From: a virus
Lineage: Duplodnaviria; Heunggongvirae; Uroviricota; Caudoviricetes
Virus record (IMG/VR): IMGVR_UViG_2734482571_000001
Length of the DNA stretch: 7,936 nucleotides
Reading direction: 5' to 3' (one strand)
This document shows, piece by piece, positions 1 through 7,936 of the stretch. The notes beneath the pieces were generated by a model. That model made no database searches. It saw nothing but the letters and a program-made list of their open reading frames with translations, and was not told the DNA's origin. The stretch's first letter is position 1. Each line of letters opens with the position of its first letter. The position numbers were made by a program, and so were the translations under genes.

Positions 1-35
1 GAACAGGAGGGACAGCTGATAGAAACAGAAGCCAC
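1..35 (-). CDS. insA: IS1 InsA, 5' partial (first 11 codons; continues beyond the window)
   Basis: GTG start at 35..33 on the minus strand; translation (M)ASVSISCPSC matches the InsA N-terminus from memory. Too short to appear in the ORF track. Confidence 0.75.
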   Translation of the reverse strand, partial: MASVSISCPSC

Positions 36-90
36 TGGAGCACCTCAAAAACACCATCATACACTAAATCAGTAAGTTGGCAGCATCACC
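1..90 (-). mobile_element. IS1 end, partial element running off the left edge (terminal inverted repeat about 68..90)
   Basis: Reverse complement of 1..90 reads GGTGATGCTGCCAACTTACTGATTTAGTGTATGATGG...GTGGCTTCTGTTTCTATCAGCTGTCCCTCCTGTTC, which matches the IS1 terminus and insA start as I recall them. The element boundary is at base 90, 15 bp beyond the stop (106..108) of the adjacent head gene. Confidence 0.85.
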
Positions 91-105
91 TCATTCGTCT
101 GTTCC

Positions 106-612
106 TTAAATCTTCCAGGAAATTTCTGCATTGCCGTCAGCATCACCGGCACCTGTGAATTCAGCGTTGGTCAGCACCACGTTTTTGCCACTGACTGACG
201 TGGACATGAATCCACCCAGCGGCACTTTGATGGATTCATCAGTGGAGACGACAACGTATACCGGATCGCCTTTTTTGATAGTGCTGGCATCAAAATCAGA
301 ACCGAGATTAACGGTCACGTAGCCACGCTTCATGGCGTCGCCCGGGAAGTTCTTGCCTGTTCCCACCTGGCGAACCATGTCCGGCTGCGACGTGGTCGGA
401 TAAGGGCGCACGTAGATCCCCTTCACCTTGTCTGCGGTATCACCATCTGCCAGCGGCACGAAAAAACCGTCATCATCGTATTTACCAGCCAGGCCATAGG
501 CAGCGAAGGCGTTATCGGATTTAAGGACCACCGGTTCGACGGTTAAGTCCTGCGGGCGAGAGACAGCCCCGGCAATGCCAACAGGCATCCGGTACAGAAA
601 TACATTATTCAT
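106..612 (-). CDS. Small phage head protein (168 aa), possibly decoration or capsid-associated; family not assigned
   Basis: Intact ORF with ATG at 612..610, tightly coupled to the upstream gene (minus strand reads TAA AAA ATG); TAA stop at 108..106. Sits where a head module places its decoration or capsid-adjacent gene. Function is inferred from position only. Confidence 0.7.
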   Translation of the reverse strand: MNNVFLYRMPVGIAGAVSRPQDLTVEPVVLKSDNAFAAYGLAGKYDDDGFFVPLADGDTADKVKGIYVRPYPTTSQPDMVRQVGTGKNFPGDAMKRGYVTVNLGSDFDASTIKKGDPVYVVVSTDESIKVPLGGFMSTSVSGKNVVLTNAEFTGAGDADGNAEISWKI

Positions 613-615
613 TTT

Positions 616-1836
616 TTACCCTTTACGGTTTGCCCAGAATTCAGCGTTTTGTTTGTTCAGGGAAGCGATACTGGTCATGCCCATGTTTAGGCGCTGTGCA
701 TCGCCGGTGGTGGCGCGGGTGTTTCGCCCTTTGGCAACCTCAGACACGGCATTAAACGCCATGTCGACCGATTGTTTCGGTAATTTGCGGATATCCGCAT
801 CACCGACTATCTGGCGAACCAGCGTTTTGTCAGCAGAAGCCAGAACCTCGCGTTTGAACGCGGTCGGTTTCATCTTACGGCTCAGATCGATACCCGGAAC
901 GATAACTTCGGCACGCCAGGCTGAGTCACCAGTAATCGTGGTTTCCTCTTCATCGTCCTCGCCGTCACCGGTCGGATTATCGTCAGGCTTATTATCGTTA
1001 TCGCCCGTGGCATTTCTTTCCAGCTTAGCCAGCAGGGCTTTCAGTAATGTTTTGAGGTCATCATCACTGTCGCCGGTTGGATCTCCGCCCATCTCTGGTG
1101 CTTTGTCCGGTAGTGGTTGCTGCGGGGACAGGTTGATGTTGAGATTAACGCCCTGCGGCAAATCCCCCTCATCTCCTGTAACCGATGCGGGAGCCGACTC
1201 CACCAGTTCGTTCATGGTGTCGGCATCTCCTGTCTTGATGGCCGCACGCATGCGGTTCCACCAGTTTTTCTTTTGATTTGCCATTGTGTCTCTGTCTCCA
1301 ATTGCACAACGATTTCCGGCTCTGCCTTTAGGGACAAGAGCCACATGGTTTCCGGTAATATCGACCTGCTCGGCTTTACCTGGCTCGGTCTGCTCGTACT
1401 CCGCGTCATAGCCGCACGACACTTCGCGCAGGCCATCTTCGATAAGCTGAATGGCGCTTTCGTCTTTGACGATAAGGTCAGCCAGCATCAAATCAGACTG
1501 CTCACCCGTCCCGCGCCGGACATTCTGGAGGTGCCCGACAGCAAGCTCTTTCCAGTTCTCGGGATTTACCAGCCGCACATTCCCGTTTTCATCTTCAGGA
1601 TGCAGGATCGTGATGCTCATCCCTTCGAATGAGGCAAGCGTGGCCGGATGGAATACCTGCTCAGGAGAACGCGTGACGACTATTTCACCGAACTTATCGG
1701 GTTTCAGTTTTGGCAGGTCATCAGCACCATAGAGCTGCTTACCTGTTCGTCCTATCGGCACGTCTTTGCACAGCAACGAGCCGTCAGCCAGGCGGTATCG
1801 GGTTTCCCCGAGCCTGGTCTCAAAAAAGTATTTCAT
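616..1836 (-). CDS. Head scaffolding / capsid-assembly protein candidate (406 aa), possibly DUF2213-like
   Basis: Intact ORF with ATG at 1836..1834, 3 nt after the MuF-like stop (TAA CCC ATG). Contains a long acidic low-complexity segment (DNDNKPDDNPTGDGEDDEEETT) as often seen in scaffold proteins. Position between the MuF-like gene and the small head protein gene supports a head-assembly role. The DUF2213 label is from memory and unverified. Confidence 0.75.
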   Translation of the reverse strand: MKYFFETRLGETRYRLADGSLLCKDVPIGRTGKQLYGADDLPKLKPDKFGEIVVTRSPEQVFHPATLASFEGMSITILHPEDENGNVRLVNPENWKELAVGHLQNVRRGTGEQSDLMLADLIVKDESAIQLIEDGLREVSCGYDAEYEQTEPGKAEQVDITGNHVALVPKGRAGNRCAIGDRDTMANQKKNWWNRMRAAIKTGDADTMNELVESAPASVTGDEGDLPQGVNLNINLSPQQPLPDKAPEMGGDPTGDSDDDLKTLLKALLAKLERNATGDNDNKPDDNPTGDGEDDEEETTITGDSAWRAEVIVPGIDLSRKMKPTAFKREVLASADKTLVRQIVGDADIRKLPKQSVDMAFNAVSEVAKGRNTRATTGDAQRLNMGMTSIASLNKQNAEFWANRKG

Positions 1837-1839
1837 GGG

Positions 1840-2622
1840 TTATGCTGCCCTTTTCATTGCGAATGGAACGCGAACAAACACGATCTCTTTATAGCAGCGG
1901 CAGTTTGGCAGCTCGCCCGCGTGGCCGGTCATGCCGTCCAAAGTTGGAGGTGAATCCCAGCGGACGAATTTACCTTTCATGTGATCGTGGGAATCTCGGA
2001 CATCGCCATCATCGGCTGTACGCCAAATATAACCATCCGAGCCAATAGCTATCGCTCGGGCCATATCCAGCGCGCCCGTTGCTCTTCCCAGTTCCGTTCG
2101 GGCAATCAGATCGGCCCTAGACTTAGCAACATCGCCGGTAGATGCAATCTCTTTAGCAAACTGCTCCGCCCGACCACCGGTGACAACAGCCTCTATCGCT
2201 TTGTTCTGGATGTCGTACACCCTGTCTGCGGCCTCGAGAGGCAGAGATTTGATGTACTTGACCTGTTCGGCGATGATGGATTGCATCACCTGGCCCACAG
2301 GAGCGCTTTCCACAAGATTGCGGAGCTCGCGACTGATGTTCTTGCTGTGTTGCCGCCAAACTTTCTCGTTCTGCCGGGTTAGGTCCGCAGTAAAGTTTTC
2401 CGCGACCTTTGTCGCCCAGGGGGTGATGATTTCACTGTAACGCTCCAGCGCCGCAATAATTTCCGTGATACTGTCATTTGAACCATCGTAGCGACCATTT
2501 ACGATGTCTCCGACCGCCCTCGCTATCCTGCGTAGGCTGGTTCGATACCGGATTTCCGCCTGACGGCTCCTGCGGTTCGTCATCAGGTTCGCCGATGCCG
2601 GGCGGCGCTTCATCTTCGGCAT
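1840..2622 (-). CDS. Head morphogenesis protein, Mu F-like / SPP1 gp7 family (260 aa)
   Basis: C-terminal region RTADDGDVRDSHDHMKGKF...GELPNCRC has the hallmark R-x-SH...NCRC signature of MuF-type minor head proteins, and the gene lies directly after the portal as in SPP1-like modules. ATG at 2622 has a GAGGA Shine-Dalgarno-like sequence about 11 nt upstream. Overlaps the portal 3' end by 149 nt in another frame, so the true start is uncertain. Confidence 0.85.
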   Translation of the reverse strand: MPKMKRRPASANLMTNRRSRQAEIRYRTSLRRIARAVGDIVNGRYDGSNDSITEIIAALERYSEIITPWATKVAENFTADLTRQNEKVWRQHSKNISRELRNLVESAPVGQVMQSIIAEQVKYIKSLPLEAADRVYDIQNKAIEAVVTGGRAEQFAKEIASTGDVAKSRADLIARTELGRATGALDMARAIAIGSDGYIWRTADDGDVRDSHDHMKGKFVRWDSPPTLDGMTGHAGELPNCRCYKEIVFVRVPFAMKRAA

Positions 2623-3556
2623 TCTCGATGTCCTCGTCGGTAATGGATGCCCCGATGCCGGTTACGTCAGAATTTTCTCGCAAATCAGTCATAGCGGCTT
2701 TCAGTGTCATCAGACCATCACCCAGCGCCGTACTGATTGCGTTGGTGGTGTTTAACGCCACCGTTGAGCGATCGACATCAGACATTTGCCAGAGCGGGTT
2801 AAACTCAAACGTGAAATCGTCCGGCAGCGGCTTGCCAAGTTCCGAACGATGCATGATGTCCAGTATCCGCCGCACCGGAAGACGTAAACGCCTCTCCTGC
2901 AACGAACTGATGCGATCGTAATAGTTGGCAAGGTCTGCATCACCGGTAGAAAATCCTTTCGGGGACTGTCCGAACAACCGCACCAGTGGGATACCAACAG
3001 CGCCACTAATCTGTTCTACAAACTGCGAAAGGATGTCATCCAGACCACTGAAGCTGTACTGATGGGTTTCAAACTTATCCCGCGAGTCCATGAGCGTCAT
3101 GCCTTCATTACTCTGGAACTGTCGAATCAGGTCGATATTCTTCAGCAACGCTTCATACGCAGGACCACCAAGTGCGATAAGCTCGCGTAGCTTCTCCACG
3201 CTGTAGGTACGCAAATGCGCCTTGTAGACCAGCTGCGCCGCGCCGACAGTAGCGCTGTCGAACGCGGTAAGACGATCCCAGATACGCTCTACAACCGACA
3301 TTCCCCATTCGTTCTCGGTCATCTTCTGCTGAAATGGCAACGTGACGCCATCAAAGCGAATCAGGCGACTGTGATGAATGCGCCAGGCAGGAATTCCCGT
3401 TGCTGTGGTCACCACATCGTAAAACTCAGGTTTACCCAGGTCCGGCCCCATATCTTTAATGCGGCGGGTCAGTGCCGGGTCGACCATCCAGCGGTCGAGC
3501 GGGAGAATCCCCTTAAACTTGCCCTTACCGATGGTTTCGGGTCGCAGCGGGGTCAT
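2474..3556 (-). CDS. Portal protein, SPP1 gp6-like; longest uninterrupted ORF (C-terminal 360 codons of a 489-codon frame)
   Basis: Lies between large terminase and the MuF-like gene, with an acidic disordered C-terminal tail (EDEAPPGIGEPDDEPQEP) typical of portals. The ATG at 3556 has a GAGGGG Shine-Dalgarno-like sequence 9 nt upstream. The same frame continues upstream to 3940 but contains two TAG codons (see next feature). Confidence 0.75.
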   Translation of the reverse strand: MTPLRPETIGKGKFKGILPLDRWMVDPALTRRIKDMGPDLGKPEFYDVVTTATGIPAWRIHHSRLIRFDGVTLPFQQKMTENEWGMSVVERIWDRLTAFDSATVGAAQLVYKAHLRTYSVEKLRELIALGGPAYEALLKNIDLIRQFQSNEGMTLMDSRDKFETHQYSFSGLDDILSQFVEQISGAVGIPLVRLFGQSPKGFSTGDADLANYYDRISSLQERRLRLPVRRILDIMHRSELGKPLPDDFTFEFNPLWQMSDVDRSTVALNTTNAISTALGDGLMTLKAAMTDLRENSDVTGIGASITDEDIENAEDEAPPGIGEPDDEPQEPSGGNPVSNQPTQDSEGGRRHRKWSLRWFK

Positions 3557-3940
3557 TGGTGCCTACCCCTCAATCATGATGAAACCCACCGCGCCGCCGT
3601 AGAGGCGCGACCATTTCAGCACGTCATTCAGCGCATCCCAGATTTGCAACTCATCCAGTTGTGATTCGAGAATGCCACGATCTTTTGCATCAATTTCCGA
3701 AGTGATGCGAATGCCTTTGCGGGTCATATCATCCGGGATAGCATCGACTGCTTCGCCGATGATCTAGGATGAACGATAGGACCATTCCACCAGCATGCGG
3801 TTACGACTGGTGAAATTAGCCCGGTAGGTGGATGCTGAGTGCTGGTTAGGTGTCTGCATCCCTACGCGGGCAATAAAATTCTCATAACCATCAGCTGTGG
3901 CCTGCACAGTTCGCCGCAGGGCTTGTTTGTTTCGTGCCAT
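3557..3940 (-). pseudogene. Portal gene 5' region interrupted by two in-frame TAG (amber) codons
   Basis: The minus-strand frame starts at ATG 3940..3938, overlapping the large-terminase stop (TGATG). It translates as MARNKQALRRTVQATADGYENFIARVGMQTPNQHSASTYRANFTSRNRMLVEWSYRSS-TAG-IIGEAVDAIPDDMTRKGIRITSEIDAKDRGILESQLDELQIWDALNDVLKWSRLYGGAVGFIMIEG-TAG-AP-MTPL... The TAG codons are at 3766..3764 and 3565..3563, both in frame with the downstream 360-codon ORF. Confidence 0.7.
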
Positions 3941-5343
3941 CAGGCCTGTCTCCCCAGCTGTTCCCAGATATCCAGCGATGTATCGATTGGCGCGAAGGCC
4001 ATAATGAATGCATCAGCAACGTTTGGTGACGGTATCTCGCGTTTTGCGAGGTCTTTTTTACTTTCGACCATCACACGTCCGTTACGGTCGAAATCACGAT
4101 GAGGTGTTGTCAGTTCCAGTTTCAGCTTTTCAAGCAACGGACAACGAGAATCTATGCTGATCAGCTCATCCACAGGATACTGTTCTCCGTTGTTAATGGC
4201 GTTAAACGTATTTCTGAAACGGTCAGCCACCAGCCACCATGCCTGAGCCTTAAGATTTGCGAAAAAGTCTTTGTTGGGGATGCCGTTGTACTCGTCATCT
4301 GGCTCATGCACACCAGCACCGGCGTTAAACCTCTGGTAATTCACACGTCGCGCGTATGCGTTCTCGCTCTTCCGGTCAGCGTTAATTTCAGAGAATTTAG
4401 CACCGGCAGACGCACCAACACCGATAGAGTCGTAAACAATATCTGCTTCACGCTCCAGCGCCGCCTGATAAGTACGCTGGCAGCTCTTCAGTAATTCATC
4501 TTCTTTGGCCTTCCATTCGTCGGCCCAGAAAACAACGGATCCGTGACGGTAAACGTTAGCGCACTTATCTGTACCACTGTCAGCCACGTCAAAGCCAATA
4601 CGCTTTCTTCCACTGGGTTCGAAATTTAACGTTTTGTGCGCATCCACTGCGGCTTCTATCCAAGACAGTTTGATGATTGCCGCATCATCATCAGACTCCG
4701 GAACGCCCTCATACACATGTTTAAAACCATCCGGATCACGGCGTCGCGCCGCGTCGATAACCTTAAGCATGGTGTCAGACAGAAACGGATTTTCGTCATA
4801 GTTAATTTTGCGGATGAGAGTGCCTTCGGGCGGATCAACAACGAAGTTGCGCCAGACGAAATCAGTAACAAGTCCGGGGTTGAATATGAACCAGCATTCC
4901 GAACCCTCTTTACGGATCGTTGGCTCCAGAATTTTCCACTGGTATTCCGTCAGTGCGTGGGCTTCTTCCAGCCACAACACATCGATCCCCTCCAGTGACT
5001 TAATTTCTTCGATGTTGCGCCATAATCCATAAAAAACAAATTCCGAGCCAGTAACCCGGTTAATGATTTTGTTGTTCAGAATACGGAAACGGTGCCGCAG
5101 ACCAAACCTGTCTATCTGAATTTTGAGCAGGGTATACACCGACTCTTCGATTTTATTCTGGATCTGACGGGCACAACAAAAACGCAGGGTGTATTTATTC
5201 GACAGAAATATGGCAATGCCAGCGGCATCCCATGATTTTGACGATGACCGACCACCATAAAGCACTTTGTTACGTGCCCGCATAGTCCAGAAACTACGTA
5301 AAGCCGGATTCAGCGTCGGTTTGGATGTCAGAGTAGAAGTCAT
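3940..5343 (-). CDS. Terminase large subunit, PBSX / Terminase_3-type
   Basis: Walker A-like motif KVLYGGRSSSKSWD near the N-terminus and conserved ATPase/nuclease-type body; TGA stop at 3942..3940. The ORF is open up to 5451, but the first 36 codons look non-protein-like; I chose the ATG at 5343 (MTSTLTSKPTLNPAL..., GGAG upstream). In-frame starts at 5361, 5382 or 5451 cannot be excluded. Confidence 0.85.
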   Translation of the reverse strand: MTSTLTSKPTLNPALRSFWTMRARNKVLYGGRSSSKSWDAAGIAIFLSNKYTLRFCCARQIQNKIEESVYTLLKIQIDRFGLRHRFRILNNKIINRVTGSEFVFYGLWRNIEEIKSLEGIDVLWLEEAHALTEYQWKILEPTIRKEGSECWFIFNPGLVTDFVWRNFVVDPPEGTLIRKINYDENPFLSDTMLKVIDAARRRDPDGFKHVYEGVPESDDDAAIIKLSWIEAAVDAHKTLNFEPSGRKRIGFDVADSGTDKCANVYRHGSVVFWADEWKAKEDELLKSCQRTYQAALEREADIVYDSIGVGASAGAKFSEINADRKSENAYARRVNYQRFNAGAGVHEPDDEYNGIPNKDFFANLKAQAWWLVADRFRNTFNAINNGEQYPVDELISIDSRCPLLEKLKLELTTPHRDFDRNGRVMVESKKDLAKREIPSPNVADAFIMAFAPIDTSLDIWEQLGRQA

Positions 5344-6058
5344 TGAGGTCACGCTCTCCATTGCCATCATCAATACCTGCATCACGGCGAAGACGATCAG
5401 CCTCCAGAGACACCTTATCAGTGGCGGCCTTGCGGTAGGCTGTATCAGCAAATATTTTTCCTACCGTCGCAAGCGTGCCAACGATGGACTCAATACGAAC
5501 TGTATTGCGCATCATTGCTTTCTCGGCGGCGCTGATATTTTCAATCAGCATCTTCCTTTCCTGGTCCCCATTAGCATCTTCCAGCGACACCAACCACCGA
5601 CCAATATTCTCTGCAGCGACAAGGTTGTTAGCACGAAGGCGAAATAATTCGTCCTCGAGCGTCAACGCTTTAGCGTCCTCTATCACCTCATCTTTGAGCA
5701 GAAGGCGACGGGCATAACCACCGTGTTTTAATGCCTGCTGGTTACCGGGTTGGAATGGGTTAGTCGGGGGATCGGTACGCATTCCGCGTATCGGTTTCGT
5801 ATCCGGTGTAGATTCTGTTTTTAGTTGCGTACTTTTTTGTGTAAGGCCAGTAATGGCAGGCTTTCTGCTGGTACGCACTTTCCTTTTTTGCGTACCATTT
5901 TTGCAAACCTGCGTACCGCCACTGCGTGCCCAACCAAGCTTTTTGGCCCTCTTCCTGATAGCCCCTTCTGTAACGCCGTATTTCTCGCCTATATCACGGA
6001 GGCTAAGGACTCCGGCCCGGTATGCCGATTCGATGGCCTCCCAGTCCGGTTTTGCCAT
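5294..6058 (-). CDS. Terminase small subunit with N-terminal helix-turn-helix (254 aa)
   Basis: N-terminal HTH-like segment (YRAGVLSLRDIGEKYGVTEGAIRKRAKKLGW) and the PGNQQALKHGGYARR motif typical of phage small terminases. ATG at 6058 with AGGAAG 9 nt upstream; TAG stop at 5296..5294. Lies immediately upstream of the large terminase on the same strand. Confidence 0.8.
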   Translation of the reverse strand: MAKPDWEAIESAYRAGVLSLRDIGEKYGVTEGAIRKRAKKLGWARSGGTQVCKNGTQKRKVRTSRKPAITGLTQKSTQLKTESTPDTKPIRGMRTDPPTNPFQPGNQQALKHGGYARRLLLKDEVIEDAKALTLEDELFRLRANNLVAAENIGRWLVSLEDANGDQERKMLIENISAAEKAMMRNTVRIESIVGTLATVGKIFADTAYRKAATDKVSLEADRLRRDAGIDDGNGERDLNDFYSDIQTDAESGFT

Positions 6059-6255
6059 GATTATGCTTCCTGTGATTTACTGTTATCGCTGCCTGTCACA
6101 ATAGGTTGCTTTAATTCTTCCTCATCACTCACTCCTGCGACGCTCCGTGGCAGGGCCCCCCACAGGAGTACCTTGTAAATGTAAGGTGTTTAAGCCTAAA
6201 TTAAGTCGTATCACGGTTAAATAGCAAAGAAAAATTCACAGAAGGAAAGACATTG

Positions 6256-6765
6256 ATGGAGTGGATAAATGCTTTGATGAACTATTTTGTACTTCATCCA
6301 TATCGCCTATGGGGGCTTCTTTTTATAATAGCGTTCACAAAATCCACTTTACTCATTTCGGCGATATTGCCACCAGCATCAATTATGATGGCCACTGTAA
6401 TTACAGTCAGCAAGACGACTCTTTCACCATGGGAAGCTGGAATCACGGTCATGAGTGGCGCATGGTGCGGTACTATCGTTAATTACCATCTTGGTATAAT
6501 AATTGGGCATATCCCTCAACTTGCATGTATAATATCAAGCCGTTCCAATACAATAGAACGGGTTCGCCTTCAGTTGCAAAATAACTCTGTGTCAATACTT
6601 TTCACTTCGCGCTTTATCGCCGTGCTGCGTTATATTGCTCCTTTGGTGGCAGGAATGTTGCAACTTCATCCAGTGAAAGTGTATACAGTGAGTCTGATTT
6701 CAGCTGCTAGCTGGTCAGCACTTTATGTTGGTAGTTTTAGCTTCGTGTTGCCTTTTTTTAGCTAA
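6256..6765 (+). CDS. DedA/YqaA-like (VTT / SNARE-associated domain) inner-membrane protein, moron gene (169 aa)
   Basis: Only convincing plus-strand gene in the window. ATG at 6256 is preceded by GAAGGAAAG (AGGA 9 nt upstream); the ORF track starts it at a TTG at 6253. Multiple hydrophobic segments. The motif SRFIAVLRYIAPLVAGM matches the DedA-family signature RF-I-P-x-LR-x-x-x-P-x-x-AG, and GAWCGTIVNYHLGIIIG resembles the glycine-rich DedA motif. Visibly AT-rich compared with the flanking phage genes. Confidence 0.75.
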   Translation: MEWINALMNYFVLHPYRLWGLLFIIAFTKSTLLISAILPPASIMMATVITVSKTTLSPWEAGITVMSGAWCGTIVNYHLGIIIGHIPQLACIISSRSNTIERVRLQLQNNSVSILFTSRFIAVLRYIAPLVAGMLQLHPVKVYTVSLISAASWSALYVGSFSFVLPFFS

Positions 6766-6853
6766 ACTGCCCATAAAAAGCTCTTGCGAATCCAGCTTCC
6801 CCCATTCCTCTGACAACAGAATCTGATTTGAAGGATAATGAGTAAAATTACCG

Positions 6854-7324
6854 CTACCCCCCAAGGCATTGGATCCTGATGTACTCCTGAAGCATTCTCA
6901 ATGCTGTCTGGTCGCTGATGATTCCGTCCCGGATACCGAGAACGTTTCGTCCAGCAACTGGAGAGAGTTCGACGGTGGCATCATTGCCCATGCCGGAGGC
7001 GCTGGAGGTTTCGGCTGAGGATGGCACAGGGCATTTTCCTTTGACGAGCACCCGACCACCATTATCAAGCTTGCGCCGAAGAGCATCATTTTCAGCTTTC
7101 GCATCAGCTAACTCCTTCGTGTATTTAGCATCGAGTGCATCAGCATCACGCTGGCGCTGCTGCATGTCAGTAATGGTTGCGTTCGCCAGCTTCAGTTCTC
7201 TTGCGTTTTTGTCGCGCTGCTCTTTGTAGGTAATGGCGTTATCACGGTAATGATTAACAGCCCATGACAGGCAGACGATGATGCAGATAACCAGAGCGGA
7301 GATAATCGCGGTGACTCTGCTCAT
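6854..7324 (-). CDS. Rz: Rz i-spanin (inner-membrane spanin subunit)
   Basis: Translation from ATG 7324..7322 ([34 protein letters not shown]...[13 protein letters not shown]) is near-identical over about 85 residues to lambda Rz as I recall it, with a C-terminal Cys. TAG stop at 6856..6854. The start overlaps the endolysin stop (ATGA). The ORF track extends to a GTG at 7336. Confidence 0.9.
6898..7104 (-). CDS. Rz1: Rz1 o-spanin (outer-membrane lipoprotein), embedded in Rz in the +1 frame
   Basis: 68-codon ORF entirely inside Rz in another frame; lipobox-like MVVGC followed by the proline-rich [11 protein letters not shown], the hallmark of Rz1. ATG at 7104..7102. Confidence 0.8.
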
Positions 7325-7431
7325 TGCTGCCCCCACAAACAGACTTCACGCTCAATCTCACGACGGGTCATCAGCCCTTTCCATTGCTTACCGCCAGCAT
7401 ATGTCCAGCGACGTAGCTGATCACATGCGCC
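7321..7431 (-). pseudogene. Endolysin (phage 21 R / RrrD-like SAR lysozyme) 3' fragment
   Basis: The minus-strand frame ending at TGA 7323..7321 translates as ...[36 protein letters not shown], matching the C-terminus of lambdoid GH24 SAR endolysins as I recall them. The frame has stops just upstream (7461..7459, 7476..7474), and homology ends at about 7431 where IS21-like sequence begins. Confidence 0.7.
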
Positions 7432-7615
7432 TGGCAGAGAATGTCTGGAATAGCGAGGTTATCTTCGCGGAGATTAAGGCAATGGGTTATACGGGCGGAC
7501 GTTCCATGCTGCGTTACTACATCCAGCCCAAACGTAAAATGCGTCCGTCAAAAAGAACAGTTCGCTTCGAAACTCAGCCTGGATACCAGCTCCAGCATGA
7601 CTGGGGCGAAGTTGA
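7425..7615 (+). mobile_element. istA: IS21-family transposase istA internal fragment (5'-truncated; 3' side runs into the N gap)
   Basis: Plus-strand translation [63 protein letters not shown] carries the IstA motifs GY-x-GG and RFET-x-PG-x-Q-x-Q-x-DWG (compare IS100 IstA). The N-terminal HTH part of IstA and any IS terminal repeat are absent, so the copy is truncated at its left side. Confidence 0.7.
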
Positions 7616-7762
7616 NNNNNNNNNNNNNNNNNNNNNNNNNNNNNNNNNNNNNNNNNNNNNNNNNNNNNNNNNNNNNNNNNNNNNNNNNNNNNNNNNNNNN
7701 NNNNNNNNNNNNNNNNNNNNNNNNNNNNNNNNNNNNNNNNNNNNNNNNNNNNNNNNNNNNNN
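7616..7762. other. Assembly gap or masked region (147 N)
   Basis: Uninterrupted run of n characters; the true length and content are unknown. It probably hides the rest of the IS21-family element and/or the middle of the endolysin gene. Confidence 0.95.
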
Positions 7763-7828
7763 AGATGCTATAGCAACAGCCCCGCCACCAATAGCAACTG
7801 CAACAGCCTTGCGTAATGATGGCGACAT
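7763..7828 (-). pseudogene. Endolysin 5' fragment (N-terminal SAR signal-anchor-release domain)
   Basis: ATG at 7828..7826 with GAGAGGTG 5 nt upstream; translation [22 protein letters not shown] is the Gly/Ala-rich SAR domain typical of phage 21 R-type endolysins (from memory [22 protein letters not shown]). Runs into the N gap and is out of frame with the 3' fragment at 7431..7321. Confidence 0.7.
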
Positions 7829-7882
7829 TATTCACCTCTCGCAGCCTTACTAGACTGGCCCCCTGAATCTCCAGACAACCAG

Positions 7883-7902
7883 TATCACTTAAATAAGTGA
7901 TA
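7883..7902. promoter_or_regulatory. Operator-like palindrome TATCACTTA-AA-TAAGTGATA upstream of the endolysin start
   Basis: Perfect 9-bp inverted repeat with a 2-bp centre, 55 to 74 nt upstream of the endolysin ATG (7828). The TATCAC half-site resembles lambdoid repressor operator half-sites. No binding protein can be assigned from sequence alone. Confidence 0.3.
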
Positions 7903-7936
7903 GTCTTAATACTAGTTTTTAGACTAGTCATTGGAG

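Follow-up and report, generated by a model that had tools for sequence, protein, structure and literature searches.

Does the broken endolysin gene in a Shigella sonnei-type prophage scaffold record a real allele, or a join made during assembly? The question is raised by IMG/VR record IMGVR_UViG_2734482571_000001, a stretch of 7,936 nucleotides (nt) that we call the window, which covers a cryptic lambdoid S. sonnei prophage from an IS1 end to an IS2 end. Toward its right end the endolysin gene rrrD is represented by two fragments, and between them lie a piece of the insertion sequence (IS) IS21 and a run of N. An earlier note on this DNA, made from the letters alone, had offered IS insertion followed by deletion, or a chimeric contig, as the cause, and these are the two readings that survived our tests. 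We tentatively favour the first, namely that a real allele formed by IS21 insertion and microhomology-guided deletion exists at the rrrD locus, with our doubt still slightly outweighing our belief. The pieces themselves are fragments of two well-known things, the phage 21 R / RrrD endolysin and IS21, and each falls short of a functional member of its kind.

Fragments of rrrD and IS21 in the window

The earlier note had placed the two ends of an endolysin gene at 7828..7763 and 7431..7321 on the minus strand, and both are indeed there. We compared them with the intact gene in closed S. sonnei genomes, ten chromosomes (including 53G, HE616528, 780769-801851) that were found by means of the truncated portal protein encoded in the window. 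The first fragment translates to residues 1-22 of the intact 165-aa RrrD, and the second to 36 residues followed by a stop, equal to residues 130-165. The first carries the Gly/Ala-rich N-terminal signal-anchor-release (SAR) segment, which aligns, by way of the intact S. sonnei allele, with residues 1-22 of PDB entry 4ZPU. The intact S. sonnei RrrD matches Pfam PF00959 with E = 1e-43 and, over all 165 residues, both 4ZPU (RrrD) and 3HDE (phage 21 lysozyme) with E of about 1e-104.

What the window lacks is a block of 320 nt, which corresponds to positions 5805-6124 of the relative locus L010 and to residues 23-128. The letters that flank this block in the window correspond to L010 positions 6125 and 5804, and the 330 positions between them consist of 183 nt of IS21 and 147 N. 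Residues 23-128 of the GH24 catalytic domain therefore have no counterpart in the window as printed, and among them are Glu35, Asp44 and Thr50, which we take to be the catalytic triad on the strength of the roles described in the phage 21 lysozyme literature. The fragments occupy the same position in a holin-endolysin-Rz/Rz1 cassette as phage 21 R / RrrD (GH24, PF00959) but, unlike the known enzyme, they are without the triad and cannot encode it. There is no uninterrupted open reading frame (ORF) of about 165 codons; the fragments lie 331 positions apart (7432-7762) and are out of frame as printed. The earlier note had made a point of this frame relation. It holds for the printed letters, with a span of 508 nt against 498 nt in the intact gene, but as an argument it is uninformative, because the length of the run of N is only an estimate.

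Beside the 3' fragment lies the plus-strand sequence, 7425..7615, that had been read as an IS21-family IstA segment, and alignment to IS21 bore this out. Positions 7423..7615 (193 nt, counting a 10-nt word shared with rrrD that is described below) correspond to IS21 nt 289-481, and the DNA is 98.5-100% identical to IS21. Identity to istA of the IS21 copies in E. coli genomes is 98.5-99.5%, and all 193 of the 193 nt match the IS21 copy of the S. sonnei draft L020. Because the match to this S. sonnei copy is perfect, whereas the copy in E. coli E200139 differs at two sites, the IS21 sequence belongs to the same kind of genome as the window itself. Positions 7425..7615 translate to an internal IstA segment of 63 residues, and with the shared word about residues 62-127 of IstA are visible. 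The 63-aa piece, which is the linker between the helix-turn-helix and rve domains, had no match in Pfam, and its identity is therefore taken from the DNA match.

Although the sequence is that of IS21, an IS21-family element with the transposase gene istA and the helper gene istB, only nt 289-481 of about 2.13 kb can be seen. The piece is without a terminal repeat, the start of istA, the catalytic domain, istB or a target duplication; the remainder of istA and istB could be in the 147-N gap or absent. The junction lies inside istA, as had been claimed, at IS21 nt 289-298 and not at an IS terminus. We looked for the marks of transposition in the window as it stands, and found neither terminal repeats nor a target-site duplication. 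The left end of IS21 (IRL, TGTCAGCGCCAGTGATATAAG) has no match anywhere in the window with 3 mismatches allowed, and no IS21 terminal repeat is present; the right end (IRR) is …GGCGTTGACA. IS21 is known to make a 4-bp target duplication, and none is visible at the IS21 piece, where the target is non-contiguous and 320 nt of it are gone. A simple IS21 insertion is therefore not visible in the window.

The shared word at the join

The match to rrrD extends to position 7432, and the match to IS21 begins at 7423 (7420 with one gap). The earlier note had noticed that a few bases seemed to fit both reading frames; the overlap is longer than was thought, a 10-mer, ACATGCGCCT. This is the only 10-mer, and the longest word, that rrrD and IS21 have in common in direct orientation. 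The parental copies are direct, on the same strand, and a single copy is left at 7423-7432. Some 10-mer common to rrrD and IS21 is expected by chance, 76% of shuffles having one. Because the join falls exactly on the longest common word, we do not think its position a matter of chance; judged from these letters, it indicates a putative event guided by homology.

The history that we favour would have two steps. The strain's own IS21 would have inserted into rrrD, with istA antiparallel to rrrD. A RecA-independent deletion between the two direct copies of ACATGCGCCT, the one in rrrD and the one at IS21 nt 289-298, would then have taken out the left end of IS21 with its first 288 nt, as well as the stretch of rrrD next to it. 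What was left would be an IS21 copy that is truncated and can no longer move, attached to the final 36 codons of rrrD. The IS21 that remained would be a repeat that the assembler could not cross, so that the scaffolder would have bridged it with 147 N, an estimated length. Some, if not all, of the DNA of the isolate would thus carry a private rearrangement of rrrD. We infer both steps, as well as the content of the gap and any fixation of the rearranged allele in the culture.

Deletion between direct 10-nt repeats a few hundred nt apart is a classical product of slippage, and the lacI deletion hot spots are a known example of deletion between short direct repeats. As in such deletions by replication slippage in enterobacteria, one copy of the repeat remains here between unrelated sequences, whereas in the present case the precursor was not observed and the event would have to be read from a single draft scaffold. 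A precursor allele, with IS21 inserted in the rrrD of this prophage, was not found in any genome, and the nearest to it is in a different prophage. This is the insertion in E. coli E200139 (NZ_CM128604.1; L002 8133-10263), the one record among 5,426 complete E. coli genomes that has IS21 beside rrrD. It is a normal, full and independent insertion elsewhere in the gene, with a complete IS21 in the rrrD of DLP12 and a 4-bp duplication, GAGT. The IS, the gene family and the orientation are those of the window, and the insertion lies 79 nt from the ACATGCGCCT word; unlike the window, it retains both ends and the GAGT duplication, has lost none of its target, and belongs to another prophage in another host. 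By analogy, a slippage deletion from a precursor like that of E200139 would give exactly the left junction seen here.

Real allele or composite scaffold

The window is flanked by an IS1 end at 1-90 and an IS2 end at 7851-7936. In a public assembly index, 2,576 blocks contain the truncated portal protein (a block is an index unit and may comprise several contigs), and in about 2,300 of these the longest contig with the portal fragment is 5-10 kb. Because the IS ends are about 86-90 nt long and a contig of 5-10 kb is typical for the portal fragment, the 7,936 nt would seem to be one entire short-read scaffold cut at IS copies, and the ends, 90 nt of IS1 and 86 nt of IS2, suggest that k in its assembly was about 87-91. 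Ends that reach about k-1 nt into repeats, together with a run of N between contigs, match the short-read pattern. The run of N noted earlier is exactly 147 nt long, at 7616..7762.

The alternative to a real insertion and deletion is that the scaffold is a composite, in which the resident rrrD is intact and the join comes from a second copy, a minority subpopulation, a contaminant or duplicated chimeric library molecules. Greedy gap filling would then have extended the edge of the left contig along an IS21 branch, and the gap would have been set by read pairs from intact molecules. We regard this as a serious possibility, although we disbelieve it somewhat more than we believe it. Much of the evidence that follows weighs against insertion and deletion as the explanation, and the parts of it that a composite accounts for are pointed out as they arise.

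To begin with, rrrD is intact, with 498 nt or 165 codons, in every relative locus read, including 10 of the 10 closed S. sonnei chromosomes. The lengths in the window are also telling: 183 nt of IS21 plus 147 N make 330 nt, near the 320 nt of the intact gene, as would be expected of a pair estimate made across an intact gene after 183 nt had been filled in. The right-hand piece is 174 nt long, consisting of 88 nt of rrrD and holin sequence and 86 nt of IS2, with no IS21. If a single rearranged allele had been sequenced, this piece should carry about k-1 nt of IS21; on the composite reading it has the size of a single junction unitig, without IS21, for a k of about 87-89. Furthermore, about 1.8 kb of IS21 in the gap would bar ordinary read pairs from linking the two pieces, yet they are linked. 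We also considered a gap length taken from a reference and rejected it, as this would yield exactly 137 or 320 N and not 147.

The junction was absent from every collection searched, which is again what a composite would predict. It was not found in the 5,426 complete E. coli genomes; nor was it found among PLSDB plasmids or INPHARED phages, which gives no sign of a plasmid or phage origin; and exact and permissive patterns did not find it in GTDB species representatives, IMG/VR or JGI metagenomes. A 112-aa ORF that fuses antisense rrrD with IstA was compared with 5.8 billion proteins, and no match covers its leader part, a weak negative in that the match list holds short proteins only. The closed S. 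sonnei genomes were inspected around chosen proteins, and a second locus with the junction may lie elsewhere in them.

Two sister scaffolds provide a further parallel. In the S. sonnei drafts L017 (3333-4752) and L020 (3413-4938) the true left end of IS21 is inserted in a copy of IS1, and the IS21 pieces stop at nt 478 or nt 520 and are followed by a single N. Beyond the N the sequence resumes in IS1, 240-310 nt upstream of the point where IS21 is inserted, and passes that point without a break. From the order of these pieces, the joins beside IS21 cannot be collinear and would be false joins, and such non-collinear restarts speak for a composite in the window too. In one published pipeline, Velvet (with k at 66-90% of read length) is followed by SSPACE and GapFiller, and its authors warn of false joins (PMC5320598), of which SSPACE and GapFiller are thus capable. 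The window resembles the repeat artefacts of these programs in its contig ends, about k-1 nt inside IS copies, and in its estimated run of N; it differs in that it is not tied to that pipeline and in that its join itself needs spanning reads.

Other points speak against a composite. Assemblers that work by k-mers or overlaps cannot join two sequences on a 10-nt overlap, and reads must therefore span 7432/7433. The overlaps needed by assemblers and gap fillers are far longer than 10 nt, which means that several reads must truly contain the join, and a lone library chimera is normally dropped by coverage thresholds. No second copy of rrrD came to light, and typical S. sonnei drafts assemble straight through rrrD (the roughly 2,300 index blocks with contigs of 5-10 kb).

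One model that fits every observation is that the sequenced DNA contained both intact rrrD and rrrD-IS21 molecules, whether from a mixed culture or from two copies. With such a mixture the assembly would be interrupted where the paths fork, at 7432 and 7763; the gap would take its size from read pairs of the intact allele, and extension of the contig edge would follow the IS21 branch. The rearranged allele could then be the main one, a minority or spurious. The earlier note had concluded that the lysis enzyme is inactivated, and this we do not assert for the real genome, as the agreement of the two lengths and the IS21-free right-hand piece suggest that intact rrrD molecules were sequenced as well. 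The case highlights that the length of a gap can itself reveal intact molecules in a sample. Where a short-read scaffold shows a join to the inside of an IS beside a run of N, we would caution against annotating a disrupted gene unless reads support it.

Base differences near the junction were also examined. Over positions 1-7432 the alignment with the window is gapless in 8 of the 10 closed S. sonnei chromosomes, and the six that were aligned base by base show only three differences, at 7273, 7413 and 7420, all of which are at most 160 nt from the join. Beyond the gap, positions 7763-7936, including the IS2 junction, are identical in 9 of the 10, and L016 has one indel. At the three sites the six closed chromosomes, with IS2 present, have G, A and G; the S. 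sonnei draft L022, with the same IS2 junction, has A, A and G; L023 and L024, in which the holin gene is uninterrupted, have A, G and G; and the window, with IS2 present, has A, G and A. Position 7420 is the sole difference between the window and L023/L024 in 7,339 nt. Its A could be a scar of error-prone repair, a pre-existing variant or a consensus error at low coverage, and the placement of the sole private base in 7.3 kb at 3 nt from the join is a point in favour of a composite.

Two candidate sources for these bases were tried. A second copy of rrrD as the source of the last 160 nt was rejected in part, 7273A and 7413G being natural alleles of the same prophage (L022, L023/L024). A DLP12-type rrrD as the donor of 7273-7366 was rejected, the allele of L002 differing from the window at 7299, 7310, 7313, 7363 and 7366.

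A third explanation, which we judge improbable, is a templated patch, in which about 330 nt from inside IS21 replaced 320 nt of rrrD by way of two microhomology-guided template switches, with the rest of the patch under the run of N. The left junction on a 10-nt microhomology, a printed total length near the replaced length and a base change that adjoins the junction would all be in keeping with it. Nevertheless, it needs the near-equal lengths as a coincidence, and its 147-nt remainder should assemble easily; the right-hand piece should reach into the patch and does not, and the second junction is absent from the sequence. We give very little credence to the idea that a patch of this kind, with a base change at the junction, represents a bacterial templated 'filler' replacement with an IS as its donor. 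It is also highly improbable that the run of N is 147 real bases hidden by the preparer of the data and covering the second junction: some stretches of one public collection are masked as N, and 147 is a multiple of 3, but sister S. sonnei drafts also have N at the corresponding point, where their IS21 pieces break off at nt 478 and nt 520, and the window begins and ends with about k-1 nt of an IS, as raw short-read scaffolds do.

The prophage around rrrD

The features of the window are collected in Table 1.

Table 1. Features in and around the rrrD locus of the window; L numbers are relative loci.
Feature	Position	Strand	Basis or remark
IS1, terminal 90 nt (left scaffold end)	1..90		100% identity to IS1 copies in L001 and all closed S. 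sonnei loci; length about k-1 of a short-read de Bruijn assembly
Rz i-spanin gene, 156 aa	6854..7324	-	Pfam PF03245, E = 1e-29
Rz1, embedded in Rz	6898..7104	-	Translation with lipobox VVGC
rrrD 3' part, last 36 codons and stop, up to the junction	7321..7432	-	Translation; collinear with intact rrrD in L001, L003-L016 and L022-L024 up to 7432
Private G-to-A	7420		3 nt from ACATGCGCCT; G in all same-prophage relatives; A in the DLP12-type rrrD allele of L002
10-nt microhomology ACATGCGCCT, junction	7423..7432		In rrrD and at IS21 nt 289-298
Internal IS21 istA sequence	7433..7615	+	IS21 nt 299-481, IstA about 65-127; without IRL, istA start, rve domain and istB
Scaffold gap, 147 N	7616..7762		Single run of N; sister S. 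sonnei drafts L017/L020 have IS21 pieces ending in N
rrrD 5' part, codons 1-22, SAR signal-anchor region	7763..7828	-	100% identity to closed S. sonnei genomes
Holin gene (class II), last 22 nt	7829..7850	-	Matches holin 3' end in L001 and L004; diverges at 7851; rest separated by IS2
IS2, terminal 86 nt (right scaffold end)	7851..7936		100% identity to IS2 end in L001 and to the same-site IS2 in 10 closed S. sonnei chromosomes

Whatever happened to rrrD, other genes of this prophage carry lesions of their own. The holin gene is interrupted by an IS2 that lies 22 nt upstream of the start codon of rrrD, a junction shared by all ten closed S. sonnei chromosomes. The portal gene (2474..3940, minus strand) has in-frame stops at 3563-3565 and 3764-3766; set against E. 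coli FDAARGOS_943, where the gene is intact and encodes 488 aa, they are W59* and Q127*. Because its 360-aa fragment is found in the 2,576 assembly-index blocks, the portal gene is a fixed pseudogene of S. sonnei. With IS2 in the holin gene the lysis cassette was already disabled, and with the two portal stops as well the prophage was dead before any event in rrrD.

With holin and portal already destroyed, there is no selection against loss of rrrD. If the rearrangement is true, residues 23-128 of RrrD, with the presumed catalytic residues among them, are lost, and for the same reason this is of no importance. The process is already known either way, as routine IS-driven decay with a slippage deletion or as a repeat-induced scaffold artefact, and contains nothing novel. 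The rearrangement is ordinary and private to the strain, or else an assembly composite, and has no wider importance. Decay of prophage genes by IS is well documented in Shigella; strain 53G carries 12 IS types, IS21 among them, and strain-specific IS insertions occur in 75% of S. sonnei genomes (PMC7373316).

The same prophage shows other lesions in its closest complete E. coli relative, FDAARGOS_943 (L001 4772-6000). There it is the gene for the large terminase, not that for the holin, which contains IS2, and the head morphogenesis gene has an internal stop; decay of this prophage has therefore taken an independent course in another host lineage. In the S. sonnei-type draft L022 (8094-9500; CXKS01000056.1), 47 nt of the IS2 end stand beside rrrD and are followed by the int/xis end of a lambda/P22-like prophage. 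Either a prophage has integrated or recombined at this IS2, or the arrangement is one more assembly join.

IS21 has further neighbours in S. sonnei. The IS1 copy that carries IS21 in L017 and L020 adjoins the ornithine carbamoyltransferase (OTCase) gene, rraB and an acetyltransferase gene. In L019 (5900-6331) a truncated IS21 remnant, nt 1-432, adjoins an IS91-family transposase gene, and the cluster of the fused IstA ORF has 64 members.

Finally, between Rz and the packaging genes the opposite strand encodes a DedA/VTT-family membrane protein of 170 aa (6253-6765, plus strand). The gene is kept in all relatives and is probably a moron, that is, an extra gene that is dispensable for phage growth.

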